Positions 10,626 to 39,906 of a DNA stretch of 64,000 nucleotides are shown here, piece after piece. Numbering within the stretch: the stretch's first letter is position 1; every line of letters starts with the position of its first letter. The notes beneath the pieces were generated by a model. It made no database searches, was not told the origin of the DNA, and was given only the letters and a program-made list of their open reading frames with translations. The translations under genes were made by a program, and so were the position numbers. Origin of the DNA: an uncultured Clostridia bacterium (lineage in GTDB: Bacteria; Bacillota; Clostridia; Lachnospirales; Lachnospiraceae); NCBI GenBank assembly GCA_947303805.1, contig CAMYZE010000006.1, positions 11,216 through 75,215 on the forward strand. Reading direction: 5' to 3'.

Positions 10626-10664
10626 AATTAACATAGTGTAATATATATGTACAATAAATATGTC

Positions 10665-10760
10665 TTTCCGATATTGTTGATCTAAAAGCATAGCTCATGA
10701 TGACAATACGATAGGGGTGCATTGGAAACGAGGTACCCTCCCGCCTCCGAAAAGGAATGA
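10665..10760 (+). promoter_or_regulatory. Moco (molybdenum/tungsten cofactor) riboswitch candidate
   Basis: It lies in the 191-nt gap upstream of the FDH gene. It contains GGAAAC...CCCUCCCGCCUCCGAAAAGGA, which resembles the conserved CGCCUCC...GAAAGG 3' core of the Moco RNA motif, and a TATTGT/ACAATA stem upstream. Confidence 0.55.
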
Positions 10761-10816
10761 CATTAAATTAAAAAAAACAGGCACTTTCAAAAAGAAAGTC
10801 CCAAAGGAGGAAAAGA

Positions 10817-13731: not shown

Positions 13732-15498
13732 ATGAGAGAAATTTATGGTGGTCAATTAGACGAGAATGTTAGAGTTGTCATTGATGGTCAAGTTGTTCTT
13801 TGCCCTGAGAACTCTACAATTTTAGAAGCAGCAAAGATGGCAAATATTGAAATTCCAACTCTTTGCTATTTAAAAGGTTTAACTCCAACTGGTGAGTGTG
13901 GTATGTGTGTAGTTGAAATCACATATCCAGATGGAAAGAAGAAGATAGGAAGATCTTGTCGTCTTAAAGCAAAAGACGGCATAGAGGTTGTAACTCATTC
14001 TGAAGAATTAACTAAGCTTCGTGAGAAAGCAATCAAAACTATACTTGATAAACACCCAAATGATTGTCTTACTTGCCAAAAGACAAATGGAAATTGTCAT
14101 TTGCAAGAGGTTACACACTTATTTGGTATCAATCCTGAAGAAAGAAAGGTGCCAAAGCGTACTCTTGATGAAACTAGTGTTGCATTTACTCGTGATATGA
14201 GTAAGTGTATCGCTTGTGGACGTTGTGTAACTGTATGTAATGATGTTCAAAAGATTAAGATCTATGAGATGTATACTGATCCAAAGACTGGAGACAGATA
14301 TCAAAGAGTAAAAGGCGGCAAGATGCTCAGTGATACGAATTGTATCAACTGCGGACAATGTGTAAAGGTATGTCCAGTTGCAGCTCTTACTGAGAAGGAT
14401 AGCATTAAGGAAGCAATTGATGCAATTGATGATCCAAATGTAACAATTGTATGGGAAATGGCACCAGCTATACAAAATACTTTAGGTGAAGAATTTGGAC
14501 TCCCTACAGGTTCTGATGTAACTAGAAAAATAGCTGCAGCCATGAAAGCTCTTGGAGGTTATGCTTATACAACTGATTTCTCAGCAGACTTAACCATCAT
14601 GGAAGAAGGAACAGAGTTTATAGATAGAGTTTCAAACGGCGGAGTCCTTCCTATGATGACATCATGCTGTCCTGGCTGGATAAGATACATGGAGTATAAC
14701 TATCCAGATCAACTTTCACATTTATCAACTTGTAAGTCACCACAACAGATGTTTGGAGCACTTGTTAAAAACTATCTTCCAAAGAAGATAGGCGTTGATG
14801 CTAAAAAGATTTGTCACATTTCTATCATGCCATGTACTGCTAAGAAATTTGAAAGAAGCAGAGAGGAGATGGGTGGTGATTATGGTAAGGATGTAGATAT
14901 AGTTCTTACTACAAGAGAGGCAGCAAAACTCTTTAAGTTTAAAGGAATTGATCTTGCTACTATTAAAGAAGAAGACTTTGACTCACTTATGGGTTGTGGA
15001 ACTGGTGCAGCAAGAATCTTCTCTACAACTGGAGGAGTTATGGAAGCAGCTCTTAGAACAGTTGTATGGAAACTTACAAATGGTAAGATAGATACAATTG
15101 ATTATGTAGCAGCTCGTGGATACAAGGGTGTTAAAGAAGCATCATTAAAGATTGGCGACTTAGAGGTTAAAGTAGCTGTAGTAAATGGTATAGGAAATGT
15201 TAAACCAGTTATGGATGATGTTCGTGCTGGAAAATCACCTTACCACTTCATAGAAGTTATGGCTTGCCCAGGCGGTTGCTTAAATGGAGGTGGTGCACCA
15301 CTTACATCTGAGCCATCACTTGTTGGTGTTAGAATGGATAAGACATATGAGTCTGATAAGAATAATAAGATTCGTAGATCTCATGAAAATCCAGAGATTC
15401 AAGCAATATATGCAGACTATTTGAAAGAGCCATGTGGACACATTTCACACCATATCTTACACACAACTTATACAGATAGAAGTAAAACAGTTAAATAG
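13732..15498 (+). CDS. hydA: [FeFe] hydrogenase, CpI-like multidomain (copy 1)
   Basis: The N-terminus carries [2Fe-2S] cysteines, followed by HPNDCLTCQ and two 4Fe-4S motifs. H-cluster motifs TSCCPGW, MPCTAKKFE and EVMACPGGCLNGGG are present, along with a small-subunit-like C-terminal tail. Confidence 0.9.
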   Translation: MREIYGGQLDENVRVVIDGQVVLCPENSTILEAAKMANIEIPTLCYLKGLTPTGECGMCVVEITYPDGKKKIGRSCRLKAKDGIEVVTHSEELTKLREKAIKTILDKHPNDCLTCQKTNGNCHLQEVTHLFGINPEERKVPKRTLDETSVAFTRDMSKCIACGRCVTVCNDVQKIKIYEMYTDPKTGDRYQRVKGGKMLSDTNCINCGQCVKVCPVAALTEKDSIKEAIDAIDDPNVTIVWEMAPAIQNTLGEEFGLPTGSDVTRKIAAAMKALGGYAYTTDFSADLTIMEEGTEFIDRVSNGGVLPMMTSCCPGWIRYMEYNYPDQLSHLSTCKSPQQMFGALVKNYLPKKIGVDAKKICHISIMPCTAKKFERSREEMGGDYGKDVDIVLTTREAAKLFKFKGIDLATIKEEDFDSLMGCGTGAARIFSTTGGVMEAALRTVVWKLTNGKIDTIDYVAARGYKGVKEASLKIGDLEVKVAVVNGIGNVKPVMDDVRAGKSPYHFIEVMACPGGCLNGGGAPLTSEPSLVGVRMDKTYESDKNNKIRRSHENPEIQAIYADYLKEPCGHISHHILHTTYTDRSKTVK

Positions 15499-15812: not shown

Positions 15813-17591
15813 ATGTACGAAGTTTATGGCGGACAACTAGATGAGAACATTAGAGTGATCATCGACGGACAAACTGTTTTTTGCCCACAAGGCAGCAGTA
15901 TCTTAGAGGCAGCAAAACTCGCAGGTATTGAAATCCCAACTCTTTGTTACTTAAAGGGATTAACTCCTACTGGAATGTGTGGAGTATGTGCAGTTGAAAT
16001 TGAAAATGAAGACGGCACAAGAAAAATTCGTAGAGCTTGTAGATATCGTGCTAAAGATGGCATGGTTATCTATACTAACTCTAAGAACATTGACAAGTAT
16101 CGTCAAGAGAGAATGGAGAAGCTCCTTGCTATCCACCCTCAAGATTGCTTAACTTGTCACAAATCAAATGGAAATTGTAAGTTCCAAAAAGTTGCAAATA
16201 ACTTTGCAGATCGTTACAATTTAACTGTTGAGTCAGTAAAAGTTCCAAAGAGAGGAACTGACGATTCAAGCCCAGCTTTCGTAAGAGAGATGGAGAAGTG
16301 TATTGCTTGTGGACGTTGTATCAATGTATGTAATGATGTACAAAAGATAAGAGTTTATGAGATGTACACAGATAAGTCAGGAGATAAGTACTGCAGAATT
16401 AAAGGCGGACACAAATTATCTGAGACTAGCTGTATTAATTGTGGACAATGTGTAAAAGTATGTCCAGTTGGAGCACTTACAGAGAAGAATGGTATCGTTG
16501 ATGCATTAAATGCTATAGATGATCCAAACTTAACAGTAGTATGGTCTATGGCACCAGCTATTCAAAATACTTTAGGTGAAGAGTTCGGTCTTCCTACAGG
16601 TACTGATGTAACTAGAAAGATAGCAGCTGCAATGAAGAGAGTTGGAGCTTATGCTTACACAACTGATTTCTCAGCAGACTTAACTATCATGGAAGAAGGG
16701 ACAGAGTTTATTGGTAGAGTAACAAATGGTGGAACATTACCAATGCTCACTTCATGCTGCCCAGGTTGGATAAGATACATGGAGTATAACTATCCAGATC
16801 AACTTGAGCACTTATCATCTTGCAAATCACCACAACAAATGTTTGGTGCACTTGTAAAGAATTATCTTCCAAAGAAGATAAATGTAGATGCTAAGAAGAT
16901 TTATCATATTTCTATCATGCCATGTACTGCAAAGAAATTTGAGTGTCAAAGACCAGAGATGGGCGGAGACTACGGAAAAGATGTTGATGTAGTTCTTACT
17001 ACAAGAGAAGTTGCTAAACTCTTTAAGATGAGAGGAATTGACCTTGCTACAATCGAGGAGCAAGACTTTGATTCACTTATGGGTTGTGGAACTGGTGCAG
17101 GAAGAATCTTCTCTACAACTGGTGGAGTTATGGAAGCAGCTCTTAGAACAGTTGTATGGAAACTTACAAATGGTAAGATTGATACTATTGATTATGAAGC
17201 AGCTCGTGGATATAAGGGTGTTAAAGAGGCAACTCTTAACATCAACGGTATGGACGTAAAAGTTGCTGTAGTAAATGGTATCGGAAATGTTAAACCAGTT
17301 ATGGATGATGTTCGTGCTGGAAAATCACCTTATCACTTCATAGAAGTTATGGCATGCCCAGGCGGATGCTTAAATGGTGGTGGTGCGCCACTTACATCTG
17401 AACCATCTATGATCGGTGTTCGTATGGACAAGACTTATGAGTCTGATAGAAATAATAAGATTAGAAGATCTCATGAGAACCCAGAGATAACTGCTATTTA
17501 TAAAGATTATCTTGAGGAGCCATGTGGACATATTTCACACCATATCTTACACACAACTTATACAGATAGAAGCAAGACTGTAAAACATTAA
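15813..17591 (+). CDS. hydA: [FeFe] hydrogenase, CpI-like multidomain (copy 2, paralog of 13732..15498)
   Basis: It has the same domain order and H-cluster motifs as copy 1, with long near-identical nucleotide stretches in the 3' two-thirds. Confidence 0.9.
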   Translation: MYEVYGGQLDENIRVIIDGQTVFCPQGSSILEAAKLAGIEIPTLCYLKGLTPTGMCGVCAVEIENEDGTRKIRRACRYRAKDGMVIYTNSKNIDKYRQERMEKLLAIHPQDCLTCHKSNGNCKFQKVANNFADRYNLTVESVKVPKRGTDDSSPAFVREMEKCIACGRCINVCNDVQKIRVYEMYTDKSGDKYCRIKGGHKLSETSCINCGQCVKVCPVGALTEKNGIVDALNAIDDPNLTVVWSMAPAIQNTLGEEFGLPTGTDVTRKIAAAMKRVGAYAYTTDFSADLTIMEEGTEFIGRVTNGGTLPMLTSCCPGWIRYMEYNYPDQLEHLSSCKSPQQMFGALVKNYLPKKINVDAKKIYHISIMPCTAKKFECQRPEMGGDYGKDVDVVLTTREVAKLFKMRGIDLATIEEQDFDSLMGCGTGAGRIFSTTGGVMEAALRTVVWKLTNGKIDTIDYEAARGYKGVKEATLNINGMDVKVAVVNGIGNVKPVMDDVRAGKSPYHFIEVMACPGGCLNGGGAPLTSEPSMIGVRMDKTYESDRNNKIRRSHENPEITAIYKDYLEEPCGHISHHILHTTYTDRSKTVKH

Positions 17592-19462: not shown

Positions 19463-19490
19463 TTGACAATTTTGTTTAAAGTGATAAAAT
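19463..19490 (+). promoter_or_regulatory. Promoter candidate for the mop operon
   Basis: TTGACA, a 16-nt spacer, then TGaTAAAAT (extended -10). Confidence 0.6.
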
Positions 19491-19504
19491 ATATATAATT
19501 GATT

Positions 19505-19669
19505 TAATGTTGCGAGCTACTTAAGCCCAATGGGTTTAAATAGCCAATGAGTGTAGATAGTAATGTTTGCGCTTGCCTTTTGCGAAGTAGCATTAATTGT
19601 TTTTTACATATAATTTTGAATAAAGCAACATTAGATGATTTATATATATATTTCATTTAATGTTTTTTT
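19505..19669 (+). promoter_or_regulatory. Structured leader with terminator (unassigned riboswitch-like element, copy A)
   Basis: The core is GCGAG-N27-CCAATGAGTGTA-N16-CTTGCCTTTTGCGAAG. The terminator is AACATTAGATGA/TCATTTAATGTT plus T5 at 19627..19669. The 5' segment TAATGTTGC is complementary to the terminator 5' arm. A paralogous element lies at 34244..34392. Confidence 0.6.
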
Positions 19670-19703
19670 ATTACATATTATTTATTTATAGGAGGAAATA
19701 ACT

Positions 19704-19913
19704 ATGAAATTAAGCGCTAGAAATCAATTTAAAGGAAAGGTTGTAGAGATTAAGGAAGGAGCAGTAAATGGGACTGTAAAAATCGACATCGGTGGTGGCA
19801 ATGTGATTAGTTCTGTAATTACTATGGCTTCAATTAAGGAATTAGGACTTGCAGTTGGTAAGGAAGCATATGCAGTAATTAAAGCATCTTCAGTTATGGT
19901 TGGAGTAGATTAA
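19704..19913 (+). CDS. mop: Molbindin (Mop, TOBE-domain molybdate/tungstate-binding protein)
   Basis: 69 aa beginning MKLSARNQFKGKV..., with VKASSVMV near the end. This is the classic Mop/TOBE sequence. Confidence 0.85.
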   Translation: MKLSARNQFKGKVVEIKEGAVNGTVKIDIGGGNVISSVITMASIKELGLAVGKEAYAVIKASSVMVGVD

Positions 19914-19948
19914 GCAATAATTGTAAGAATGAAAGGAAGGTTGTAGTA

Positions 19949-21091
19949 ATGGCTCTAAAAGATATACATCAAAGCGTTGTATCAAACGATAATATAGATG
20001 TATATTTTGATGTGAATGTTTCTGAAAATGAAAAAGAGAAAGATTTAAACACTAGTAAATATTTAAAAGAAATCAAAGAAAACAATAGTAGAAGCATAGT
20101 GATAGGATTTTTTATCGTTATGCTTCTTTTTTTTGTAATTCTAATATCTTTTAATGTCGGTAGATATGCAGTAAGTATTGATCAAGTTGTAAAAATATTA
20201 TTTAAAGATATTTTCCATTTTGAAAAGACCTGGGAAGATGTATATGAAACTATAGTTTGGAATGTGCGAATGCCAAGAATAATTGCCGCATTGCTTGTAG
20301 GTGCATCTCTTTCTGTGGCAGGAGCCACATACCAGGGTCTATTTAGAAACCCCATGGTGTCACCTGATATTTTAGGTGCTTCAGCAGGAGCAAGTGTAGG
20401 AGCTTGCCTTATGATGCTACTTAAACAAAATGGGGTTACAATTCAAATAGCTGCATTTGCATTTGGCTTACTTGCTGTGTCACTCACTTATAGTTTGAGT
20501 AAAGCAATTAGCAAAAGTGCAGATATGGTATTAATGCTTGTGTTATGCGGTCTTATAGTATCAACATTATTTCAGGCATTCGTATCTATAATCAAGTATG
20601 TTGCTGATACTGATTTATTGCTTCCTGAAATTACATATTGGCTTATGGGAAGTATTGCAAAAGTCACCTATAAAGATCTAATGTTCTTTATGATACCATT
20701 TATTTTTGGAGTTGTGCCCATAATGATGATAAGGTGGCAGTTGAATGTCATGTCATTTGGAGAAGATGAAGCAAAAGCCATGGGTGTCAATGTAAGTTTG
20801 ATAAGACTTATTTGTATTATATGTTCAACTCTTTTAACTGCTGGAGTTGTGTCGATTGCAGGAACAGTGGGATGGGTTGGACTTATGATACCTCACTTGG
20901 TTAGATTTATGGTGGGACCTAATAATGGAAAACTTCTTCCAATATCATTTCTAACTGGATCGCTTTTTATGCTTATCGTAGATGATGTCTGTAGGTCAGC
21001 ACTTGCATATGAGATACCATTAGGTGTATTAACTTCACTTATTGGTGCACCATTTTTTATATTGATTTTGTATAAACATAAAGGTAATTAA
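19949..21091 (+). CDS. FecCD/BtuC-family ABC permease (system 1) with about 60-aa N-terminal extension
   Basis: It carries the motifs PRIIAALLVGASLSVAGATYQGLFRNPMVSPDILG and IPLGVLTSLIGAPFF. Confidence 0.8.
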   Translation: MALKDIHQSVVSNDNIDVYFDVNVSENEKEKDLNTSKYLKEIKENNSRSIVIGFFIVMLLFFVILISFNVGRYAVSIDQVVKILFKDIFHFEKTWEDVYETIVWNVRMPRIIAALLVGASLSVAGATYQGLFRNPMVSPDILGASAGASVGACLMMLLKQNGVTIQIAAFAFGLLAVSLTYSLSKAISKSADMVLMLVLCGLIVSTLFQAFVSIIKYVADTDLLLPEITYWLMGSIAKVTYKDLMFFMIPFIFGVVPIMMIRWQLNVMSFGEDEAKAMGVNVSLIRLICIICSTLLTAGVVSIAGTVGWVGLMIPHLVRFMVGPNNGKLLPISFLTGSLFMLIVDDVCRSALAYEIPLGVLTSLIGAPFFILILYKHKGN

Positions 21092-21871
21092 ATGGAATTA
21101 AGAATTGAAAATGGAATATGTGGTTATAAAAATGTTCCTATTATTAAAAATATAAGTATTGGATTTAAGCAAGGAGAAATAGTTGGTATTCTCGGGCCAA
21201 ATGGTGTTGGTAAAACGACAATGTTTAGATCTATACTCGGATTTCTGCCACTTATAAAAGGCAACATAACACTTGACAATGTAAATAAGAGTGACATTAG
21301 TGTAAAAGAGTTTTCAAAAAACGTTGCTTATGTCCCACAAAGTAATAATCCGCCATTTCCATTTGCAGTGCCTGATGTAGTGGTGATGGGTAGGATAAGT
21401 AGATTGAAAAGATTTGAAAGACCTGGAATAAAAGACTATTTAGTTGCCTATAAAGCTCTTGAAGTATTATCTGTATCTTACTTAAGAGATAAGATATTTA
21501 CAGAAATATCTGGTGGTGAAAGGCAAATGGTTTTAATTGCAAGAGCATTGGCACAAAGTCCAAAACTTTTAGTTATGGATGAACCGACAGCAAATCTCGA
21601 TTTGGGAAATCAAATTAGAGTATTGTCCACAATCAGGCATTTGTCGAGTATGGGATTGGGTGTACTTATGACAACGCATAGTCCAGATCATGCTTTTCTA
21701 TGTTGCGACAGAGTGATTCTCATAACTAAAAACAAAGAAGTGGTAACTGGAACAGTAGATGAAATAGTTACTGAAGAAAATTTAAAGAGAGCATATAATG
21801 TTGATGTAAAAATTACAGAGATTAAAGGTAGCGACGGAAAAGCAATTAAAACATGTGTACCATTAATTTAA
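21092..21871 (+). CDS. ABC transporter ATPase (FecE/BtuD-like, system 1)
   Basis: Walker A GPNGVGKTT, signature SGGERQ and Walker B LLVMDEPT are all present. Confidence 0.85.
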   Translation: MELRIENGICGYKNVPIIKNISIGFKQGEIVGILGPNGVGKTTMFRSILGFLPLIKGNITLDNVNKSDISVKEFSKNVAYVPQSNNPPFPFAVPDVVVMGRISRLKRFERPGIKDYLVAYKALEVLSVSYLRDKIFTEISGGERQMVLIARALAQSPKLLVMDEPTANLDLGNQIRVLSTIRHLSSMGLGVLMTTHSPDHAFLCCDRVILITKNKEVVTGTVDEIVTEENLKRAYNVDVKITEIKGSDGKAIKTCVPLI

Positions 21872-21918
21872 AATAATCGAAATATAATTAAAGGAGGCTG
21901 TGGAAACACAGAATAATA

Positions 21919-23013
21919 ATGAGTAATAAAGTTTTAAATAAGATCAAAATGCTAATTTTTTCAGTGCTTACAGTTATTATAATATTGGTGACAGCTTGTA
22001 GTTCAAATAAATCTGTTGATAGTTCGAGTGCGAGCAAGGATGCTGTCACAGTTAATGAAAAGAAAACAAGAAAGATAGTAGACATGAAAGGGGTAGAAGT
22101 TGAGATACCTGAAAAAGTAAATACATTTGTAGAAAGTTGGTTTGCTCACAATGCTGTAGATGTGATGTTGAGAAATGCAGAGGGAATGCTTGTGACTTGT
22201 TGCGATGAACCATCATATCAATGGATGTATAAGGTGTGTGATAATTTAAGTAAGGCTCAGTTTGCAAAATTTTCAGATTCTATGAATCTAGAAGAGATTA
22301 TTTCTTTAAACCCAGATGTTGTATTTGGTTCAAATGAAAAATATAGAGATATGTTTACAAATGTAGGTATACCTTTTGTAAATTGTACGTTTACAAATTA
22401 TGATGAGATGAAGAGGTCTATAAAACTTACTGCAGAAGTTTTTGGCGGTGATGCAGTCGATAAAGCGAATAGATATATTTCTTATCTTGATACAAAGCTA
22501 AGTGAAGTCAAAAAGGTAACTGATACTGTGCCTGAAGATAAAAAAACTACAATTGTGCATGGTAGTTCAGTCTACAAGATGGGTGTTGATGGCAGAAACA
22601 CTATTATAAATGATTGGATAGGATATAGCGGAGGCATCAATGCAGCTGCTAATGATATAGATGGTAATTTACAGACTATGACTATGGAACAATTACTTCT
22701 TTGGGATCCAGATGTAATTATTACAGGTGATACGGAGGAAGAAGTCGATAAAATTATGTCAGATGCTTCATGGCAAAACTTAAAGGCCGTGAAAGAAGGC
22801 AGAGTATATGCCAACCCGAAAGGTATATTTGCATGGGATAGGTATGGAGTAGAGGAGGCACTACAATTTCAATGGTGTTCACAAAAATTATACCCAGAAC
22901 TATTTAAAGATTTTGACATAAAAGCTGAGCTTAAAAAATTCTATAAGGACTTCCTAGATTATGAATTAAGTGATGAAGATGCTGAAAAAATCCTAAGGCA
23001 CCAAAATCCATAA
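21919..23013 (+). CDS. Periplasmic-binding-protein (class 8, FecB/BtuF-like) lipoprotein (system 1)
   Basis: It has a signal peptide with lipobox LVTAC, the LNPDVVFG motif, and LLWDPDVIITGD typical of the siderophore/cobalamin-type SBP fold. Confidence 0.7.
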   Translation: MSNKVLNKIKMLIFSVLTVIIILVTACSSNKSVDSSSASKDAVTVNEKKTRKIVDMKGVEVEIPEKVNTFVESWFAHNAVDVMLRNAEGMLVTCCDEPSYQWMYKVCDNLSKAQFAKFSDSMNLEEIISLNPDVVFGSNEKYRDMFTNVGIPFVNCTFTNYDEMKRSIKLTAEVFGGDAVDKANRYISYLDTKLSEVKKVTDTVPEDKKTTIVHGSSVYKMGVDGRNTIINDWIGYSGGINAAANDIDGNLQTMTMEQLLLWDPDVIITGDTEEEVDKIMSDASWQNLKAVKEGRVYANPKGIFAWDRYGVEEALQFQWCSQKLYPELFKDFDIKAELKKFYKDFLDYELSDEDAEKILRHQNP

Positions 23014-23094: not shown

Positions 23095-23203
23095 TTAAAT
23101 ATAAGAAATATCCCCCCCCTGACGCTTAAGAAGTATCTGAGGCGAAAGATATGGTAGAGAATTTTTAGGAGCAATGACCATATCTTGTGATATGGTCTTT
23201 TTT
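23095..23203 (+). promoter_or_regulatory. Leader with C8 tract, alternative pairings and an intrinsic terminator (attenuator/riboswitch-like)
   Basis: The terminator is GACCATATC-ttgt-GATATGGTC plus T6 (23176..23203). AAGATATGGT (23146-55) can pair with the terminator 5' arm as an antiterminator. ATATC (23108-12) can sequester GATAT. Confidence 0.5.
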
Positions 23204-23209
23204 ATAATT

Positions 23210-24004
23210 ATGAAAATTACAAATCTTTACAAAGAAAAAGAAAATACAGAAGTTAGGGATTCTATAATCCATAAGGAAAATGGAGAGAAAGAAAACTTAC
23301 CATATGAGCTTTTAAATGAGCACTTAATTAAAGTGTATATCAATGAGAGAGAGGCTATGAGTTTAGTTTGTACCGGAACTAATCTTGTTGAATTAGTTGT
23401 TGGAAGAATAGTAAGTGAAGGTATCGTAAAAAATATTGACGATATTGAGAGCATATATATTTGTGAATATGGCCTTAGAGCAAAACTGATGATTAAAAAT
23501 TATGTACACGATGCGTGTAAACTTAAGGCATCAGATGATGTTGCAAGTTGCTGCCAAGATAATAGGACATATCTGAAGAGTGAAACAAAACTTGAGAAAG
23601 TAAATAAAATTATGGAAGTAAGTGATAAAGATGTGTTTAATCTTGCAGAGGCATTTAATGAAGATTCAAAGATTCACAAGATGACTTCTGGCACACATGC
23701 TGCATATCTATATTATGATGGCAAGGTAGTAAAATCATTTGAAGATATAGGAAGACATAATGCTCTTGATAAGATCATAGGATTTATATATATGAATAAT
23801 TATGTGCCTGAGAAATGCATAGTCTTTACTACAGGCAGAGTTCCGGTTGATATGGCAAGAAAGGCAATCTATTCAAAACTAGGATGTCTTGTATCAAAAG
23901 CAGTGCCAACTTCAGATGCAGTTGATTTAGCAAAGGAATATAATTTAAATCTTATTTGCAGAGCATGGAGAGATTCTTATCAAGTTTTTAACGAAGCACA
24001 TTAA
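23210..24004 (+). CDS. fdhD: Formate dehydrogenase accessory sulfurtransferase FdhD
   Basis: SGTHAAYLY and GRHNALDKIIG motifs are present. The start is placed at the ATG after the terminator hairpin. The alternative in-frame start at 23174 lies inside that hairpin, with an AGGAG only 2 nt upstream. Confidence 0.8.
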   Translation: MKITNLYKEKENTEVRDSIIHKENGEKENLPYELLNEHLIKVYINEREAMSLVCTGTNLVELVVGRIVSEGIVKNIDDIESIYICEYGLRAKLMIKNYVHDACKLKASDDVASCCQDNRTYLKSETKLEKVNKIMEVSDKDVFNLAEAFNEDSKIHKMTSGTHAAYLYYDGKVVKSFEDIGRHNALDKIIGFIYMNNYVPEKCIVFTTGRVPVDMARKAIYSKLGCLVSKAVPTSDAVDLAKEYNLNLICRAWRDSYQVFNEAH

Positions 24005-24006
24005 TT

Positions 24007-25017
24007 ATGAGAAAAGTGAAAACAGTTAATAAAAAAATAAATATATTGGTGGCGATATTGTTGGTTGTTTTGCCAATAATAATATCTATTATTTGTCTTG
24101 GATTTGGAAGGCTTAGCATACCTACACGTGAAATTATTGATTACTTTAAAGGTCATGAAATATCAAAACAAAATGTATTAATATTATCTAATGTCCGCAT
24201 ACCAAGAATAATTTCAGCTATTCTAGTAGGAGCTTCTCTTCCTCTTGCTGGTCTCATATTTCAATCTTATTTTTCAAATCCACTGGCAACGCCTGACACT
24301 TTGGGAGTTGCAAGTGGATCTAGTTTTGGAGCGGCACTTGCAATTCTATTTGGATTTAATATTTTTGGAATTGAAATTTCTGCATTTGTATTTGGGCTTT
24401 TAACTATTGTTATAACTGGAATTACAGGTATAAAGAGAGATGAGTCAAAGCAGACAATCATCCTTGCGGGCATAATAGTTGGTTCGCTTTTCCAAAGCCT
24501 TGTATCACTTGTTAAGTTTGTGGCTGATACTGACACGGTCCTTCCATCTATAACATTTTTTCTTATGGGAAGTTTTCAATCTATAGGCAAGGAGACATTA
24601 TTTGTAAGTGGACCTATAATCATAATTTGCATATTGATAATATTTTTACTTAGGTGGAGAATCAATCTTCTCACAGTTGATGAAGAAGTTGTAAAAACTA
24701 TGGGAGTAAATATTACTTTACTTAGAATGATAGTAATAGTTGCAGCGACTGTAATAACTGCTATTTCTATAGCTATGGCAGGTCAAGTGGGATGGGTTGG
24801 ACTTATAGTGCCACATTTTTGCAGGATGCTTGTGGGTGAAAACCATACTAAGCTTGTGCCATTCACTATAAGCATTGGCATTTGCTTTATGGTTATAATT
24901 GACACTTTGGCGAGGTCTATGTTTGCTGCTGAGATACCAATATCAGTTTTGACTTCATTAATAGGTGCACCATTTTTCATATATATGATTAGAAGTAGAG
25001 AAGGAGTTAAATTATGA
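24007..25017 (+). CDS. FecCD/BtuC-family ABC permease (system 2)
   Basis: It carries the motifs PRIISAILVGASLPLAGLIFQSYFSNPLATPDTLG and IPISVLTSLIGAPFF. Confidence 0.8.
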   Translation: MRKVKTVNKKINILVAILLVVLPIIISIICLGFGRLSIPTREIIDYFKGHEISKQNVLILSNVRIPRIISAILVGASLPLAGLIFQSYFSNPLATPDTLGVASGSSFGAALAILFGFNIFGIEISAFVFGLLTIVITGITGIKRDESKQTIILAGIIVGSLFQSLVSLVKFVADTDTVLPSITFFLMGSFQSIGKETLFVSGPIIIICILIIFLLRWRINLLTVDEEVVKTMGVNITLLRMIVIVAATVITAISIAMAGQVGWVGLIVPHFCRMLVGENHTKLVPFTISIGICFMVIIDTLARSMFAAEIPISVLTSLIGAPFFIYMIRSREGVKL

Positions 25018-25796
25018 TTTTAGAAATTAAAAATTTAACTTTTTCTTATGATAAGCATATAGTTTTTAAGGATTTAAATTTCAAACTAGAAAGCCCCGAT
25101 GTCTTATCAATACTTGGCCCAAATGGCATAGGAAAAACTACTTTAATTAAATGTCTCCTTGGTGTAAAGAAAAAAACTAGTGGAGAAATATTGGTTGATG
25201 GTAAGGAGATAGATGGCTTTAATAAAAAAGATTTTTATTCTTTTGTTGCCTATCTTAAGCAAGGCGGAAAAGAGACATCTATATATACAGTACTTGATAC
25301 AGTCTTACTTGGGCTTGCAAGTCAGATAAATCCGCTTTTAAAGCCAAAAGACAGTGATATATTAAAAGTTAATAATATATTAAATGAACTTGGTATATAT
25401 CATTTGAAAGATAAATATGTTTCAAGACTAAGTGGTGGTGAGGCACAGATGGTATTTATGGCAAGAGCACTTGTGAGAGAACCAGAGATTCTTATACTTG
25501 ATGAACCTGAGTCAAATCTTGATTACAGAAATCAATTACTTATGCTTGACACAATTGATAGATTAAAAACACACGGCAAACTAATTATTTTCAACACTCA
25601 CTATCCAGAACATGCCTTAAGATATTCAAATAAAGTTTTATTACTCAATGACTCTTATAAATATAAATTTGGCAACACAGGCGACATTATCACAAAAGAA
25701 AATATAGAAGCTACCTATAAAATTAAAGCTGCAGTGGGAGAACTAAAAGACGGCGATACAACATATAAAGATATTATCCCATTATCAATCGTATAA
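25014..25796 (+). CDS. ABC transporter ATPase (system 2)
   Basis: Walker [10 protein letters not shown], signature SGGEAQ and Walker B ILILDEPE are present. Its start overlaps the permease stop. Confidence 0.85.
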
Positions 25797-25798
25797 AA

Positions 25799-25820: not shown

Positions 25821-25831
25821 GAGGAGGACAT

Positions 25832-34214: not shown

Positions 34215-34243
34215 TTAATCACAATAAGTAAAAAAAAATCATT

Positions 34244-34392
34244 AGTGTTAGCGAGTTATTATTGACCAAGTGCCAATTTTAACCAATGAGTGTAAGTGGC
34301 GACATTTATACTTGCCTTTTGCGAAGCTACATTGATAACTTTGTAAATTAAGCATTAGATGATTTATATTGATAAATTATTTAATGCTTTTT
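34244..34392 (+). promoter_or_regulatory. Structured leader with terminator (unassigned riboswitch-like element, copy B)
   Basis: It has the same core and the same spacings as 19505..19669: GCGAG 34251-55, CCAATGAGTGTA 34283-94 and CTTGCCTTTTGCGAAG 34311-26. The terminator is AAGCATTAGATGA/TTATTTAATGCTT at 34350..34392. Confidence 0.6.
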
Positions 34393-34418
34393 AAATTATA
34401 AAAAAATTTGGAGGAAAT

Positions 34419-35441
34419 ATGTTTAAAAAGAAAGTATTAGCATTAATAGCAGTACTTGCAATGGTACTCGGATTAGTAGCTTGTGGAAACAAGACTACAA
34501 CAACAGCTGCAGTAGAAACAACAGCAGTTGAGACTACAGCAGCAAAGGAAGAAGAGAAGAAAAGTGTAAATCTTGAAATCTTACTTGAGAGAGATGATTC
34601 AATGATTAACACATATTCACTTCTCGCAGTAAATGATGCAGCTCCATTTGTAGATGCAAATGACAAAGCTGTAACTGATGTAAAGTTAAATACAGCAGGT
34701 GCAGATGCACTCATCAATTGGATGCTTGGTGAAGGTGAAGATCTTGCCAAGAATTATGGCTATGACAAATACGGTGAGTATTTATTCTATTTACTTGACA
34801 ATGCACCAAAGTCATCTGCAGAGATTCCTGCAGCAACTGAAGAGACAAAGACAATCAGAATGTCAACCACTACTTCAGTAAATGACTCAGGACTTCTTGG
34901 GTATTTACTTCCACAATTTGAGAGTAAGTATGGTTATAAGGTTGAAGTATTTTCAGCTGGTACAGGAAAATCAATTGCAAATGCAAAAGCAGGAAATGCT
35001 GATGTAATTTTAGTTCATGCTAAGGCTCAAGAAGAAAAGTTTATTGAAGATGGTTTTGCTAGAAAAGTTGATGGATTTGATAAAGAGAGATTATCTTATA
35101 TGTATAATTTCTTTGTACTCTGCGGACCAAAAGAGGATCCAGCAAATGTTAAGGGTGCTGCTTCAGTTCTTGATGCATTTAAAGCAATAGCTGATGGCAA
35201 GTTCTTATTTGTATCTCGTGGAGATAAATCAGGAACTCACACTAAAGAGTTATCTCTTTGGCCAAAGGACCTCGGAATCACTGATGATCCAACAACATTT
35301 GAGAAGTATCAAGATTGGTATATCTCTTCAAATGCAGGTATGGGTGTATGCTTAACTCAAGCTGCAGAAAGAGGAGCATATATTTTATCTGACAAAGCTA
35401 CTTTCCTTACATTTAAGGCAAATGGCGGAGTTATAAAATAG
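34419..35441 (+). CDS. tupA: Tungstate/molybdate ABC transporter substrate-binding lipoprotein (TupA-like, apparently circularly permuted)
   Basis: It has lipobox LVACGN, the anion-binding motif MSTTTSVNDSGLL, and SRGDKSGTHTKE. The segment LEILLERDDSMINTYSLLAVND that is normally C-terminal in TupA sits near the N-terminus here. Confidence 0.7.
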   Translation: MFKKKVLALIAVLAMVLGLVACGNKTTTTAAVETTAVETTAAKEEEKKSVNLEILLERDDSMINTYSLLAVNDAAPFVDANDKAVTDVKLNTAGADALINWMLGEGEDLAKNYGYDKYGEYLFYLLDNAPKSSAEIPAATEETKTIRMSTTTSVNDSGLLGYLLPQFESKYGYKVEVFSAGTGKSIANAKAGNADVILVHAKAQEEKFIEDGFARKVDGFDKERLSYMYNFFVLCGPKEDPANVKGAASVLDAFKAIADGKFLFVSRGDKSGTHTKELSLWPKDLGITDDPTTFEKYQDWYISSNAGMGVCLTQAAERGAYILSDKATFLTFKANGGVIK

Positions 35442-35463
35442 GATAATTGCTTTTGGTACTCTG

Positions 35464-36141
35464 ATGAAAATATTTAATGAAGCTATAAATTTAATAATTA
35501 ATCATGATAAAACTCTCCTAGACATATTAGTTGTGACATTTAAAATGTCAATATCAAGTTCTATAATTTCATTATTAATTGGAGTACCAATAGGCATTAT
35601 TTATGGTTATAAAAAATATACCATGAATAAGTTTTTAATAATTATTAACCGCACGCTCATGGGTATGCCACCTGTGGTGTGCGGTCTTTTATGTTATTTA
35701 TTATTTTCCGGAGTTGGGCCTTTAAGACATCTAAAACTTTTATATACTATAAGAGGAATGATAATTGCCCAAGTTTTGCTTATAACACCGATAGTTATAG
35801 GAACTATGGAGCCATTTATAAAAAAGCTTTATCCTGAGATGAAAGATACAATGGATGGTATAAAGATTAGTGAGACTAAAAAATTATTTTTACTTATAAA
35901 TGAGAGTAAGTACGAGATAATTTCAGTATATCTAATTGCATTTTCAAGAGCAATAGCTGAAGTCGGTGCAGTCTCTATGGTTGGTGGCGCTATAATATTT
36001 AAGACCAATGTAATGACTACGGCAATTATGAATTATACTAACATGGGGGATTTTAATATGGCTATGGCACTGGGAATTGTATTGCTGCTTATATCGCTTA
36101 TAGTAAATGTCATAGCAAGTATTATGCAGTACGAGAGATGA
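35464..36141 (+). CDS. tupB: Tungstate ABC transporter permease (TupB-like)
   Basis: 225 aa with 5-6 TM helices and an ABC type-I permease EAA-like loop (AFSRAIAEVGAVSMVGG). Confidence 0.7.
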   Translation: MKIFNEAINLIINHDKTLLDILVVTFKMSISSSIISLLIGVPIGIIYGYKKYTMNKFLIIINRTLMGMPPVVCGLLCYLLFSGVGPLRHLKLLYTIRGMIIAQVLLITPIVIGTMEPFIKKLYPEMKDTMDGIKISETKKLFLLINESKYEIISVYLIAFSRAIAEVGAVSMVGGAIIFKTNVMTTAIMNYTNMGDFNMAMALGIVLLLISLIVNVIASIMQYER

Positions 36142-36710
36142 TTCAATTTGGGAAAATAAAAAAATCATATAATGGACAAGTAGTTTTAGATATAGATGAC
36201 TTTTCTATTGAAAACGGAAAAATCTATGCCATTACAGGAACAAATGGATCTGGAAAAAGCACTTTAGCTAAAATTATTGCTGGAATTATTAAAGATGATA
36301 GTAATCGCACTATTGACACAGGCTTAAACGTCGGGTATGTGCCACAGAAACCATATGTATTTGACTTGACTTTAGAAAAGAACATAATGATCAGCGGCAA
36401 TGACAAAAAGAAATGTGAAAAATTAATTAATGATTTTGGAATAGGATATTTAAAAGGTAAAAGATCCAAAGGTTTTTCTGGAGGAGAACAACAAAAACTA
36501 GCACTAGCAAGATTTATGATGATGGATTATGATCTTGCAATTCTTGATGAACCAACCTCTGCTATGGATGAAAAGTCACAAGAGATAGCTGAAGAGATAA
36601 TTTTAAATTACGCAAAAGGGAAGACAATGATTGTAATTACTCATGACAAGAGTCAAATTAATAAAATAGCCGATAAAATTATAAATATGAATGGTGGGAA
36701 GATAATTTAA
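36138..36710 (+). CDS. tupC: Short ABC transporter ATPase (TupC-like, 190 aa)
   Basis: Walker A GTNGSGKST, signature FSGGEQQK and Walker B ILDEPTS are present. It has overlapping start and stop codons with neighbours. Confidence 0.75.
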   Translation: MIQFGKIKKSYNGQVVLDIDDFSIENGKIYAITGTNGSGKSTLAKIIAGIIKDDSNRTIDTGLNVGYVPQKPYVFDLTLEKNIMISGNDKKKCEKLINDFGIGYLKGKRSKGFSGGEQQKLALARFMMMDYDLAILDEPTSAMDEKSQEIAEEIILNYAKGKTMIVITHDKSQINKIADKIINMNGGKII

Positions 36711-37939
36711 TGGAACTTCTTAAAGTTGATAGTCTTGATGAGGCTAAATTAAAACTATATAACGAATATATTGCAAGTGGCAAAGGACTTGAGATAGAAG
36801 AAAAGCATGTGCTTGATGCACTTGATTATATTTTGGCAGAAAAAATTGTAAGCAGTGTGGCAGTACCAGAGTTTGATAGGTCAGTAGTCGATGGATATGC
36901 TGTTATAGCTAGTGATACGCAGGGAGCAAATGATTCTATACCAACATTTTTAAAAGTGGTTGGTGAGAGCAAGATGGGCGAAGTCTGCGGCATTGAGCTA
37001 AAAAGTGGTGAATGTGTATATGTACCAACAGGCAGCATGATACCTAAAAATAGTAATGCCTGCGTGATGGTAGAACATACAGAAAGTATAACTGATGATA
37101 AAGTTGCTATATATGAAGCGGTTGCAGATGGAAAGAGTGTGGTAAAAAAAGGGGATGATATAAAAGAAGGCTCTGAAATATTTACTGAAGGAAGAAAACT
37201 TTCTGCCGCAGACGTTGGATTTTTATCATCTATAGGAATATATAAAGTTAAAGTATATAAAAAGTGGAGTATAACAATTATATCTACTGGAGATGAACTG
37301 GTAGATGAAAAATCAGAATATAAATTTGGAAAGATAAGAGATATAAATACTAATTTGTTGTCGGCACTTTCAATAAAATACGGATTTAAAATTATAAATA
37401 AGTATTTAGTGAAAGACAATGCTGATATTTTAGAAAAAACTCTTCAAGAATCAATGTCTAATAGCGATGTAGTAGTAATATCAGGCGGAAGCTCTAAAGG
37501 CAAGAAGGATGCTAGTAGTTTAGTGATAGATAAAGTGACTTCTTCAGGAGTTTTGACTCATGGTATAGCTGTAAAACCAGGGAAGCCGACAATCACTGGA
37601 TATGATAAAAATACTAATACTGTAGTAGTGGGACTTCCGGGGCATCCAGTTGCATCAGCTGTATTATTTAAACTTATAGTATGTGGTTTATATGATATGA
37701 TAACTAATTCGCAAAATAGAGATTTGGTTTGTGAAGGCATAATGAGTGAAAATATGCCTGCTTCACCAGGTAGAATGACATTTCAACTTGTAAAAATTGA
37801 TAAAGATTTTAATGTTACACCAATATTTGGAAGATCAGGGCTTATTCGTACACTTTCGGAAGCCGATGGCTATATCATTTTAGAAACTGATCAGGAAGGC
37901 ATCCGAAAGGGCGACAAAATCAAAGTCTATTACTTGTAG
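36710..37939 (+). CDS. moeA: Molybdopterin molybdenum/tungsten transferase MoeA
   Basis: 409 aa with FDRSVVDGYAV, STGDEL, ISGGSSKG and GLPGHPVAS motifs. Confidence 0.85.
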   Translation: MELLKVDSLDEAKLKLYNEYIASGKGLEIEEKHVLDALDYILAEKIVSSVAVPEFDRSVVDGYAVIASDTQGANDSIPTFLKVVGESKMGEVCGIELKSGECVYVPTGSMIPKNSNACVMVEHTESITDDKVAIYEAVADGKSVVKKGDDIKEGSEIFTEGRKLSAADVGFLSSIGIYKVKVYKKWSITIISTGDELVDEKSEYKFGKIRDINTNLLSALSIKYGFKIINKYLVKDNADILEKTLQESMSNSDVVVISGGSSKGKKDASSLVIDKVTSSGVLTHGIAVKPGKPTITGYDKNTNTVVVGLPGHPVASAVLFKLIVCGLYDMITNSQNRDLVCEGIMSENMPASPGRMTFQLVKIDKDFNVTPIFGRSGLIRTLSEADGYIILETDQEGIRKGDKIKVYYL

Positions 37940-37943
37940 GGTT

Positions 37944-37967
37944 GTAGGGGCGAATGCTTGCAGAGCC
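37944..37967 (+). repeat. REP-like repeat, variant B
   Basis: GTAGGGGCGAATGCTTGCAGAGCC. Confidence 0.65.
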
Positions 37968-37970
37968 AGC

Positions 37971-37993
37971 GTAGGGGCGAGTTTTACGAGCCC
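37971..37993 (+). repeat. REP-like repeat copy
   Basis: GTAGGGGCGAGTTTTACGAGCCC followed by GAAGGAAAAAT-ATG. Confidence 0.75.
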
Positions 37994-38004
37994 GAAGGAA
38001 AAAT

Positions 38005-39906
38005 ATGGGAAAACGAAATTTATATTTAAAAACAATATCAGTAGAGGAAGCATACGACAAGTATTACTCTGCATTAAATGAAAAAGGAATACTTGCTAAA
38101 TTTGTTGAAGAAGTACCAACAAGCGAGGCATTAGGTAGAGTTACATCTGAAGCAATATTCGCGAAGTGCAACTCGCCACTTTTTAATGCTGCTGCCATGG
38201 ATGGAATTTGTGTTGAGAGTATAAAGACCAAAAATGCTAGTGAAGAGAGTCCTGTTATTTTAAAGTCAGGAGTTGATTATAAAATAGTTGACACAGGCGA
38301 CTCTATAAAACCACCATTTGATGCTGTAGTGATGGCTGAAGATGTAATAGAGATTGATGATGAGACAATAAAAATTATTGCTCCAGTTTCTGGTTGGGAA
38401 AACATAAGACCTATAGGAGAAGACATAGTTGCTGGTGAGATGATACTTGAAAGCAATCACAAAATCAAACCTATAGATATAGGTGCTTTAATAGCAGGAG
38501 GCATTTTAAAAATCAAGTGCCATAAAAAACTTTCAGTTGGGATAACACCTACAGGCGATGAAATTATAAATCCTAAAGATAACCCAAAAGAAGGAGATAT
38601 AATTGATTCAAATTCTTATATGATTAAAGCTTTGGTCGATGACAACGGGGGTATTGGCAAGAGATATGATATTGTAAAAGACGACTATGACAAGATTAAG
38701 GCTCAACTACAAAAATCTATTGCAGAAAATGATATTACTATTATTAATGCAGGATCTTCTGCAGGCACAGAAGATTATTCTGTTCATATACTAAAAGAAC
38801 TCGGTGAAGTAATAGTGCATGGTGTTTCTATGAAGCCAGGTAAACCTGTTATACTCGCTATAGTAGACGGTAAGCCTGTTGTTGGACTTCCAGGCTATCC
38901 ACTAAGTGCATATCTTGCATTTGATTTATATATAAAACCACTATTATCGCATGAGAAAGTAAGTCAGGATGAAATTGATGCAGTTGTATCAAAAAGACTT
39001 GTATCTTCATTAAAATACAGAGAGTATGTGAGAGTTAAAGTTGGAAAGGTTGATAATAAATATATAGCGTCGCCACTCAATCGTGGAGCTGCATCACAGA
39101 TGAGTATGGTTAGAGCTGACGGCATACTTATAATTCCACAAAATAGTGAAGGAATTGAAGCAGGAGAAGTTGCAAAAGTTAAACTTATAAAAAATAAAAA
39201 GACTCTTGACACTACGCTTGTGTCGATTGGTTCACATGATGTGCTTATGGATATAGTTGCAGATATCATGGCAAACGATTATAATGATGTAACTTTGTCA
39301 TCTACTCATGTAGGCTCTATGGGTGGACTTATGGCACTAAAGAGAGGAGAGACTATAATAGCACCTACACATTTACTTGATGAAAATAATGGTAAGTACA
39401 ATGTGGATATTATTAAAGAGATATTTGGAGAAGGTAAAGTTTCTCTAATTAAAGGATTTGATAGGATACAAGGTATAATGGTTAAAAAAGGAAATCCTTT
39501 AAGTATTAAAGGCATAGAAGATTTACCAAAGTATAAATTTGTAAATAGGCAGAGAGGTGCTGGGACAAGAGTTTTACTTGACTATAAGTTAAAGACACTG
39601 GGGATTGACCCAAAATCTATAGATGGTTATGATAAAGAGGTTGCAACTCATATGGCTGTGGCTGCAAGTGTAGCAAGTCCTTACATAGATTGTGGGCTTG
39701 GAGTTAAATCGGCTGCTGATAGTATGGGCCTTGACTTTATAGAGGTAGGCATAGAAGAGTATGATTTTGCGATTCTCACAAAGAATCTAGAAGATGAAAA
39801 AGTAAAGAAGTTTATTGAAGTGATTAAATGTGATAAACTACATAAAAAACTTGATGATCTTGGTGGTTATGGATACAGTAACCTTGGTAAAATAGTAAAT
39901 ATTTAA
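38005..39906 (+). CDS. moeA: MoeA fused to a C-terminal periplasmic-binding-protein-like (molybdate/tungstate-binding-type) domain
   Basis: The N-terminal 400 aa carry MoeA motifs (AAMDGICV, PTGDEI, NAGSSAGTEDY, GLPGYPLSA). The C-terminal about 230 aa (SIGSHD...GTRVLLD...) resemble a PBP/LysR-substrate fold. Confidence 0.75.
   Translation: MGKRNLYLKTISVEEAYDKYYSALNEKGILAKFVEEVPTSEALGRVTSEAIFAKCNSPLFNAAAMDGICVESIKTKNASEESPVILKSGVDYKIVDTGDSIKPPFDAVVMAEDVIEIDDETIKIIAPVSGWENIRPIGEDIVAGEMILESNHKIKPIDIGALIAGGILKIKCHKKLSVGITPTGDEIINPKDNPKEGDIIDSNSYMIKALVDDNGGIGKRYDIVKDDYDKIKAQLQKSIAENDITIINAGSSAGTEDYSVHILKELGEVIVHGVSMKPGKPVILAIVDGKPVVGLPGYPLSAYLAFDLYIKPLLSHEKVSQDEIDAVVSKRLVSSLKYREYVRVKVGKVDNKYIASPLNRGAASQMSMVRADGILIIPQNSEGIEAGEVAKVKLIKNKKTLDTTLVSIGSHDVLMDIVADIMANDYNDVTLSSTHVGSMGGLMALKRGETIIAPTHLLDENNGKYNVDIIKEIFGEGKVSLIKGFDRIQGIMVKKGNPLSIKGIEDLPKYKFVNRQRGAGTRVLLDYKLKTLGIDPKSIDGYDKEVATHMAVAASVASPYIDCGLGVKSAADSMGLDFIEVGIEEYDFAILTKNLEDEKVKKFIEVIKCDKLHKKLDDLGGYGYSNLGKIVNI

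Follow-up and report, generated by a model that had tools for sequence, protein, structure and literature searches.

A compact variant of the Moco/Tuco riboswitch predicted upstream of tungsten and molybdenum genes in Clostridia

Two leader RNAs in a 64,000-nucleotide stretch of DNA from an uncultured Clostridia bacterium (contig CAMYZE010000006.1; the whole stretch is called the window here) are likely to be cis-acting transcription-termination riboswitches. Leader A (positions 19504-19671) lies upstream of mop and an ABC importer, and leader B (34241-34394) is in front of tupABC and moeA genes. Both appear to carry a compact and divergent form of the aptamer of the molybdenum cofactor and tungsten cofactor (Moco/Tuco) riboswitch, which is Rfam family RF01055. 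Binding of a ligand, probably the pterin cofactor with tungsten (or molybdenum) or the metal-loaded precursor directly before it, would switch the downstream genes off. We assign a probability of roughly 70% to this explanation taken as a whole. It builds on a sequence pattern, a covarying structure, a relationship to RF01055, gene associations and alternative pairings, all of which are observed.

The resemblance between the two leaders was noted in an original prediction made from the letters of the window. The layout that it described, GCGAG-N27-CCAATGAGTGTA-N16-CTTGCCTTTTGCGAAG, is present without gaps at 19512-19587 in leader A and at 34251-34326 in leader B, with no match expected by chance. 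The 44-nucleotide core pattern matches the window exactly twice (19544-19587 and 34283-34326), where the chance expectation is 0, and 100 shuffles yield no match even if three mismatches are tolerated. Compared with dinucleotide shuffles, the folding of the leaders has z-scores of -5.6 (A) and -4.8 (B), with none of 200 shuffles as good. In the minimum free energy (MFE) fold, each leader forms a three-way junction, then a long AT-rich hairpin and then a U-tract. The junction consists of a closing helix (P1), a hairpin within the 27-nucleotide spacer (P2) and an 11-base-pair hairpin (P4) whose GNRA loop is GUAA in A and GCGA in B, and a conserved single-stranded stretch, GCCUUUUGCGAA, precedes the AT-rich terminator hairpin. 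The spacer hairpin, UUAAGCCC/GGGUUUAA in copy A and AUUGAC/GCCAAU in copy B, differs between the copies, as had been noted, by three double substitutions and by a G.U pair in one copy that is G-C in the other. An A.C mismatch in P2 of copy B had been missed, and it falls at a position that is a conserved A.C or G.U throughout the family described below. Besides the aptamer, the leaders have the terminator arm CAUUAGAUGAUUUAU in common, as if a single module of aptamer and terminator had been duplicated.

Rfam 15 recognizes a single RNA in the window, which is a canonical Moco/Tuco riboswitch lacking P3 (Table 1). As the original prediction had proposed, both leaders were scanned against Rfam, and no confident match was found: at E<=10 there is no family match, and small nucleolar RNA, microRNA and small RNA models scoring 12-16 bits were rejected as noise. 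The link to RF01055 came via the locus of a TupA homologue, L007 (loci of relatives are given L numbers), which carries an RNA scoring 53.5 bits with RF01055, whose gathering threshold is 36 bits. The core of this RNA, CUCCGAG...ACCAAUGAG-CACAUUUG-GAAA-CAGUUGUG-CUUGCC-AUUUU-UGCGAAGGAG, shares CCAAUGAG, CUUGCC and UGCGAAG with the window leaders. In the cmscan alignment of L007 to RF01055, the elements CCAAUGAG, GNRA, CUUGCC and UGCGAAGGAG fall onto AGGG, GAAA, CCUCCC and UUGGAAAGGAG, respectively.

This alignment allows the two forms to be compared helix by helix. The variant has the element order of RF01055, and specifically that of the P3-lacking "Tuco" type: P1, GAG, P2, an 11-base-pair P4 with a GNRA loop, a 2-base-pair P5, a purine followed by AA, and the 3' strand of P1. 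Both occur upstream of genes for molybdenum and tungsten transport, cofactor synthesis and cofactor-dependent enzymes, and both use termination-type expression platforms. At the base of P4, canonical GGG/CCU becomes GAG/CUU (G-C to A-U), in P5 canonical CC-N7-GG becomes GC-N5/7-GC (C-G to G-C), and J5/1 changes from AAA to GAA, whereas the GAG of J1/2 is kept. The core accordingly reads UGAG / CUUGCC / UUGCGAAG instead of AGGG / CCUCCC / UUGGAAAGG. Set against the full RF01055 motifs CuCCGAG, AGGG, CCUCCC and UUGGAAAGGaG, the variant has (G/C)CGAG, UGAG, CUUGCC and UUGCGAAG(G/C), so that GAG alone survives, and two of the changes are compensated base pairs. The window copies also have (U/A)GC...G(C/U)(A/U) in P1 rather than CUCC...GGAG. 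Instead of a GAAA tetraloop with an 11-nucleotide receptor in a bulge of P2, the variant has GCAA, GCGA, GUAA or GUGA loops and a short P2 of 27-28 nucleotides without the receptor.

RNAs that combine a long P2 with the variant core CCAAUGAG / CUUGCC / UGCGAAGG bridge the two forms. Three of them (L007, L016 and L062) are matched both by RF01055 and by R1, a covariance model built from the variant, whose E-values are rough because its calibration was shortened. Short-P2 variants score 67-103 bits with R1 and do not match RF01055. Among the long-P2 RNAs with the variant core, the R1 and RF01055 scores are 59.3 and 53.5 bits for L007, 53 and 37.6 bits for L062, and 41.5 and 48.2 bits for L016; L024 scores 46.8 bits with R1 and remains below the gathering threshold of RF01055. 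R1 also matches the canonical Moco RNA at L055:1680-1799 with 26 bits (E = 2.7e-4; RF01055 gives 69 bits there) and, with filters off, the canonical RNA of the window at 10660-10764 with 16 bits (E = 1.8e-4), covering the full length in the correct register. The view that the leaders belong to no known class does not survive this comparison, since each of their helices has its counterpart in the P3-less Moco/Tuco RNA and bridging RNAs link both. The accompanying statement that their core is unlike the Moco motif is right for the nucleotides, with CCUCCC/GGAAAGG replaced by CUUGCC/GCGAAG, and wrong for the architecture, which is that of Moco RNAs. Overall, the variant appears to be a sibling of the Moco motif beyond the reach of the Rfam model, that is, a compact and previously unannotated relative. 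Full-text literature searches returned no description of it.

A scan of a genome collection with the pattern CCAWTGAG-N16-24-CTTGCC-N2-6-TGCGAAG returned 66 loci, of which approximately 40 are true members in metagenome-assembled genomes of rumen and gut Clostridia. The other ~24 were rejected as chance matches, in non-Firmicutes and unrelated phyla and without the P4 hairpin; their number is near the expectation from the information content of the pattern. Most true loci conform to gCUCCGAG-N27/28-CCAWUGAG-N20(GNRA)-CUUGCC-UUU-UGCGAAG-GAGc, which is the gap-free geometry of the window leaders, but with the canonical CUCC/GGAG P1. The window type of P1 (GCGAG...GAAGCU) is found in L001, L021, L047, L070, L079, L081 and L088. 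A metagenome scan with a GCGAG-specific pattern gave one locus only, and no motif was detected upstream of tupA in six loci whose TupA proteins are 65-78% identical (L004, L009, L012 and L082-84). The core of L088 deviates (CCGAUGAG; UGUGAAG), and exact-pattern scans therefore undercount the family.

Homologues and covariation, which the original prediction had named as its check, are both found: there are about 40 further examples, and double changes occur at 22 of 30 base pairs when 36 distinct relatives are aligned by MAFFT without fitting to the structure (alignment A2). In this alignment 89.1% of cells are paired, compared with 33-42% if the partners are slid, and the covariation score is 0.498 versus ~0.1; none of 500 shuffles reached the observed values. 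Covariation supports P1, P2 and P4. Both pairs of P5 are invariant in A2, and its G-C becomes G.U once, in L088. For a helix between GCGAG and CUUGC, which had been proposed for both leaders, no covariation is seen, and 30 of the 36 relatives have C.C in place of its fifth pair. We set this helix aside, as it clashes with P1 and P4, both of which covary.

All P4 loops in the family are GNRA and, across the family, GYRA (GCAA, GCGA, GUAA or GUGA). P2 is composed of an outer and an inner helix. One position in P2 (columns 24/34 of A2, corresponding to the region of 19526/19535 in the window) is mostly A.C and otherwise G.U, A-U or U-A. The A.C/G.U switch is an isosteric wobble pattern, and it adjoins a conserved CCC/GGG tip. 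This wobble position and the tip might form a helical receptor for the GYRA tetraloop, in place of the GAAA/11-nucleotide receptor pair. No association between tetraloop type and the A.C/G.U position was seen when the two were compared by eye. In canonical Moco RNAs, the GAAA tetraloop of P4 docks to a receptor in the P2 bulge, and four Moco RNAs with GCAA loops were described that lack the receptor (Regulski et al. 2008; PMC2408646).

The leaders had been predicted to resemble riboswitches, with a structured aptamer, an intrinsic terminator and an antiterminator at the 5' end, and the folds and duplex energies agree with this. In particular, the 5' arm of the long AT-rich terminator hairpin, which is GCAACAUUAGAUGA in leader A, complements the 5' strand of P1 and a few bases upstream of it. 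The resulting antiterminator duplex has a predicted energy of -14.1 kcal/mol in leader A (0 of 300 shuffles as good) and -10.4 kcal/mol in leader B (1 of 300), where shuffles of these two leaders average about -3.5, and comparable duplexes are found in L001 (-10.4), L021 (-12.0) and L088 (-16.1). Shuffles average -3.2 to -5.6 kcal/mol for these leaders, and at most 1 of 300 is as good. The P1 helices are weaker than the antiterminator duplexes, at -5.2 to -9.1 kcal/mol (-9.1 in leader A), and the terminator hairpin of L088 has -15.0 kcal/mol. In all five leaders the terminator, which is separate from the window-type aptamer, and an alternative pairing that involves P1 preclude each other, as is characteristic of termination riboswitches. 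The 3' strand of P4 was also considered as an antiterminator partner; it is complementary in L001, L047, L079 and L081 and not in window leader B, and we judged this complementarity to be a by-product of shared ancestry.

Leaders of the CUCC type that precede ydhYVW-like operons for enzymes of the tungsten aldehyde oxidoreductase (AOR) family have a different platform. Here the 3' strand of P1, GGAG with its extension, is itself the 5' arm of the terminator, and the 3' arm ends at the U-tract. The duplex between the two arms reaches -10 kcal/mol or lower in 23 of 31 leaders, and in about 14 leaders the pairing begins with the first G of GGAG and runs up to the U-tract. These duplexes also show compensatory changes, for example GGAGUCCG/CGGGCUCU versus GGAGUUCAU/AUGAGCUCU versus GGAGCUCGUCUGU/ACGGACGGGUUCU.

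These pairings suggest both a direction of regulation and its kinetics. The proposed aptamer is a three-way junction closed by P1, with GAG in J1/2, a short P2, CCAAU in J2/4, an 11-base-pair P4 with a GYRA loop, a 2-base-pair P5 (GC-N5-GC) and GAA in J5/1. In leaders of the window type, the free 5' strand of P1 would capture the emerging 5' arm of the terminator when no ligand is present, permitting read-through into mop and the ABC importer (leader A) or into tupABC-moeA (leader B). With ligand in the junction, P1 would close and release the terminator arm, and the hairpin and U-tract could then form and stop transcription. In AOR-type leaders the same closure would remove the base of the terminator and turn expression on, because the P1 3' strand is itself that base. 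One aptamer core could therefore activate a tungstoenzyme operon and repress genes for tungstate uptake, metal insertion and molbindin.

Several observations weigh against this explanation. RF01055 matches none of 31 short-P2 instances (leaders A and B and L078 searched alone at E<=10, and 28 others), and because of this family membership rests on the architecture and the bridging sequences. The off platform is not uniform among window-type relatives, in that complementarity between the P1 5' strand and the terminator is absent from three window-like leaders (L047, L079 and L081). In thermodynamic folds, the terminator forms with or without P1, and also with the P1 3' strand blocked, and the antiterminator is never the minimum; because equilibrium folds keep the terminator either way, the antiterminator would have to act kinetically. 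The nearest relatives are without aptamers, both at tupA (L080) and at mop (L085-87). L080, whose TupA is 97% identical, has a 76-nucleotide spacer between rubredoxin and tupA that keeps only a perfect terminator-like hairpin. L085-87, with a 95% identical permease, retain the promoter TTGACAATTTGGTGTGAAGTGATAAAAT, which is followed by ~105 nucleotides of unrelated AT-rich leader before mop. Whole riboswitch modules thus appear to be subject to presence/absence polymorphism, and their absence from the closest relatives implies that the element is dispensable or a recent gain. Terminator B contains a weak resemblance to a promoter at 34369-34397 (TTGATA-17-TAAATT, 9 of 12 matches). Transcription of tupA could escape the riboswitch if this site were active, but it is probably a chance match in AT-rich sequence. 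Finally, direct binding of a ligand was never shown for Moco RNAs, and the instability of the cofactor rules out standard binding assays (PMC2408646).

The three tupA leaders that lack the P1-based antiterminator (L047, L079 and L081) contain a conserved linker, AUCGU(G/A)AAAG, after the 3' strand of P1. This linker can pair with CUUUUGCGA, which comprises P5 and J5/1, giving an alternative "anti-aptamer" hairpin instead of the P1-5' antiterminator.

Table 1. Positions of predicted RNA elements, promoter and downstream genes (window coordinates unless a locus is named).
Feature	Position	Strand	Description or basis
Canonical P3-less Moco/Tuco riboswitch	10654..10773	+	RF01055, 54.2 bits; upstream of formate dehydrogenase that is very likely a selenocysteine enzyme
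Predicted promoter of leader A	19463..19490	+	TTGACA, 16 nt, TG-n-TAAAAT; 11/12 consensus matches, extended -10 TG
Aptamer A	19504..19596	+	MFE; R1 77.8 bits, E = 9e-19; RF01055 no match; family covariation
Aptamer A, P1 5' strand	19504-19513	+	
Aptamer A, J1/2	19514-19516	+	GAG
Aptamer A, P2	19517-19543	+	
Aptamer A, J2/4	19544-19548	+	CCAAU
Aptamer A, P4	19549-19574	+	GUAA loop
Aptamer A, P5 plus GAA	19575-19586	+	
Aptamer A, P1 3' strand	19587-19596	+	
Intrinsic terminator A	19622..19671	+	AT-rich hairpin, -12.6 kcal/mol, then U7
Genes behind leader A	19704..23013	+	mop (TOBE molbindin) 19704-19913, then FecCD-type ABC importer 19949-23013; Pfam and NCBIfam
Aptamer B	34241..34336	+	MFE; R1 68.1 bits; RF01055 no match
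Aptamer B, P1 5' strand	34241-34252	+	
Aptamer B, J1/2	34253-34255	+	GAG
Aptamer B, P2	34256-34282	+	
Aptamer B, J2/4	34283-34287	+	CCAAU
Aptamer B, P4	34288-34313	+	GCGA loop
Aptamer B, P5 plus GAA	34314-34325	+	
Aptamer B, P1 3' strand	34326-34336	+	
Intrinsic terminator B	34350..34394	+	18-bp AT-rich hairpin, -16.9 kcal/mol, plus U-tract
Genes behind leader B	34419..39906	+	tupA, tupB, tupC (tungstate ABC importer), moeA, moeA-PBP_like fusion; Pfam and NCBIfam
Aptamer-less stretch before tupA	L080:190-300		Compared with window 34215-34420
Aptamer-less stretch before mop	L085:3600-3765		Compared with window 19463-19705

The genes downstream of family members are related to tungsten and molybdenum. 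That both window leaders precede molybdenum and tungsten handling genes, as the original prediction held, is confirmed by Pfam and NCBIfam matches of the encoded proteins. Seven distinct copies of the GCGAG type precede tupABC-moeA-moeA/PBP, and two (window leader A and L088) precede mop and a FecCD-type ABC importer. The CUCC-type copies include 29 that are upstream of Fer4(YdhY)-AOR(YdhV)-YdhW operons. Three genes form the core of these operons, and they encode a 4Fe-4S protein resembling YdhY (PRK09898, 242 bits), an AOR-family enzyme of ~732 amino acids that resembles YdhV and has AFOR_N and AFOR_C domains (PRK09849, 851 bits) and a YdhW-family protein; in a few loci the next gene is NTPase_1 (L055) or FdhD-like (L055, L072 and L074). 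Copies that combine a long P2 with the variant core lie upstream of AOR operons (L007 and L024), a FecCD-type importer (L016) and Fe-ADH (L062).

The pattern of operons predicted to be turned on and off fits a signal of cofactor sufficiency, and tungstate itself would fit it almost as well. We favor a metal-loaded pterin as the ligand because of the mixed wiring, the homology to Moco RNAs and the presence of moeA among the repressed genes; repression of moeA is less logical if the ligand is an oxyanion. It is also possible, though unlikely, that the scaffold has been retained and its specificity changed, such that the variant core senses a species other than that sensed by the canonical Moco/Tuco RNA in the same cell. 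Candidates would be the tungsten form (tungsten-bound molybdopterin or an AOR-type bis-pterin) and not the molybdenum or molybdopterin guanine dinucleotide form, metal-free molybdopterin or cyclic pyranopterin monophosphate, and tungstate or molybdate. Positions that are near-invariant in RF01055 are altered consistently across ~40 species, and variant and canonical RNAs share a genome and even a locus (the window, L055 and L023). Their targets also differ, with AOR-family tungstoenzymes, tupABC and mop behind variant RNAs, and the selenocysteine formate dehydrogenase of the window and a protein weakly matching Oxidored_molyb in L055 behind canonical ones. The strings GCGAAG, CAAUGAG and CAUUGAG are absent from the supplementary alignment text of Regulski et al. 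2008, a machine-read text in which strings could split at gaps (PMC2408646). However, most core changes are compensated pairs (G-C to A-U, C-G to G-C) that can be neutral, multiple copies of one riboswitch class per genome are common, and RF01055 still matches the bridging RNAs despite their variant core. Moreover, these bridging RNAs precede the same kinds of genes (WOR, tupABC and Fe-type importers) as the published Tuco riboswitches of Eubacterium limosum (PMC11725836). A more specific proposal, speculative but not far-fetched, is that the compact aptamer is a dedicated sensor of the tungsten cofactor (AOR-type tungsten pterin, possibly tungstate), and that the canonical RNA senses the molybdenum or dinucleotide form. 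If so, metals or cofactor forms would be told apart at the RNA level, with tungstoenzyme operons on and tungstate uptake off.

Two further possibilities depart from the Moco/Tuco assignment or from metabolite sensing altogether. An entirely new riboswitch class, whose helix order resembles that of Moco RNAs by convergence, could account for the lack of an Rfam match at E<=10 on the leaders or on the best family member, and for a P1 sequence, P2 length and core motifs that depart from the RF01055 consensus. We regard it as very improbable: the helices and junctions occur in the same order, with GAG after P1, 20-nucleotide P4 spacing with a GNRA loop, a 2-base-pair P5 and RAA before the 3' strand of P1. 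In addition, both models give scores to three bridging sequences, alignments of canonical Moco RNAs to the variant model span the full length with E ~2e-4, and the gene neighbourhoods are identical in kind. Least credible of all is that the leader is a site for a regulatory protein (Mop/ModE-like or another RNA-binding factor) or a processing element, and not a metabolite sensor. The first gene behind leader A encodes a molbindin (Mop) that could in principle feed back on it, and no Moco-type RNA has been shown to bind a ligand directly (PMC2408646). Yet metabolite aptamers typically have the features seen here, namely a three-way junction (of ~95 nucleotides in this case) whose junction nucleotides do not vary, helices that covary and a GNRA loop; one core is coupled through P1 to both on and off platforms, and no candidate gene for an RNA-binding protein is common to the three operon kinds.

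Variant riboswitch subclasses that keep a scaffold and change its core are known, as in the ykkC subtypes and in the guanine class with its 2'-deoxyguanosine or xanthine variants. The RNAs described here resemble such subclasses in having consistent changes at conserved junction nucleotides and in coexisting with the parent class. Unlike the ykkC and guanine variants, they have mostly compensated changes of base pairs, and the likeness is one of sequence alone. Uptake genes for molybdate and tungstate are also controlled according to metal sufficiency by the protein-based ModE/Mop system. That system uses a DNA-binding protein at the promoter, whereas leaders A and B would act as RNA structures inside the transcript. 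The closest published counterparts are the Tuco riboswitches of E. limosum, which control WOR1, tupABC, two Fe-type ABC importers and focA (PMC11725836). Like the variant, they lack P3, are associated with AOR/WOR tungstoenzymes, tupABC and FecCD-type importers, and have mixed regulatory logics. They are, however, ordinary RF01055 matches, in contrast to the variant with its short P2 and altered core, which RF01055 does not detect.

The Moco/Tuco riboswitch is, to our knowledge, among the few widespread classes for which ligand binding has not been shown directly. The variant may be useful in this respect, as a minimal relative of ~95 nucleotides, without P3 or the tetraloop receptor, of an important class. 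Its defined core substitutions, beside the canonical form in the same genomes, offer a natural comparison for studies of specificity and a smaller target for structure determination. The opposite wiring of one aptamer that the pairings point to, with enzyme operons on and uptake and biosynthesis genes off, would be a clean and testable design. The variant also brings to light tungsten regulons in rumen and gut Clostridia that had gone unannotated. Annotation with Rfam 15 misses a set of molybdenum- and tungsten-associated leaders there, and as a consequence too few regulons are called for tungsten enzymes, tungstate uptake and FecCD-type "iron" importers.

The two window leaders differ in how they are likely to be transcribed. 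Transcription from the promoter of leader A is predicted to begin at ~19497, at the start of the leader. No convincing promoter was found in a search upstream of leader B, whose aptamer starts 27 nucleotides after the rubredoxin stop codon, and this leader is probably transcribed by read-through from rubrerythrin and rubredoxin genes. The order rubredoxin, aptamer, tupA recurs in L001 and L081.

The importer behind leader A comprises a FecCD-type permease, an ABC ATPase and a Peripla_BP_2 binding protein. An fdhD gene (23174-24004) follows, and the mop/importer cluster is conserved in L085-L091. Importers of this FecCD/Peripla_BP_2 ("iron-siderophore/B12-type") kind recur behind Moco-type RNAs and near mop and fdhD, both in the window (the importer behind leader A and 24007-26578) and elsewhere (L016:3011-6227 and L088-L091). 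Their repeated occurrence behind such RNAs and beside mop and fdhD suggests that they carry molybdate, tungstate or related species rather than iron. The corresponding importers behind Tuco riboswitches in E. limosum were read as iron uptake systems (PMC11725836).

Downstream of the canonical riboswitch of the window, fdhA (10817-13729) is split by an in-frame TGA at 11966-11968 (HCARL*HSS), and the encoded catalytic subunit of formate dehydrogenase very likely contains selenocysteine. Two genes similar to those of [FeFe]-hydrogenases (13732-15498 and 15813-17591) come next, an arrangement that resembles a hydrogen-dependent CO2 reductase cluster. Canonical RF01055 and variant aptamers also lie 2-6 kb apart in L055 (1671-1805 and 7740-7834, both on the minus strand) and in L023 (1-119 on the minus strand and 1652-1745 on the plus strand). 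The canonical copy in L055 precedes genes for a 186-amino-acid protein of unknown function and a 165-amino-acid protein that matches Oxidored_molyb weakly. The locus of one window-like tupA leader contains a SECIS_4 element (57.6 bits; L021:5297-5334 on the minus strand), which is consistent with selenoprotein genes neighbouring tungsten loci, and Se_S_carrier genes occur in L081, L082 and L085.

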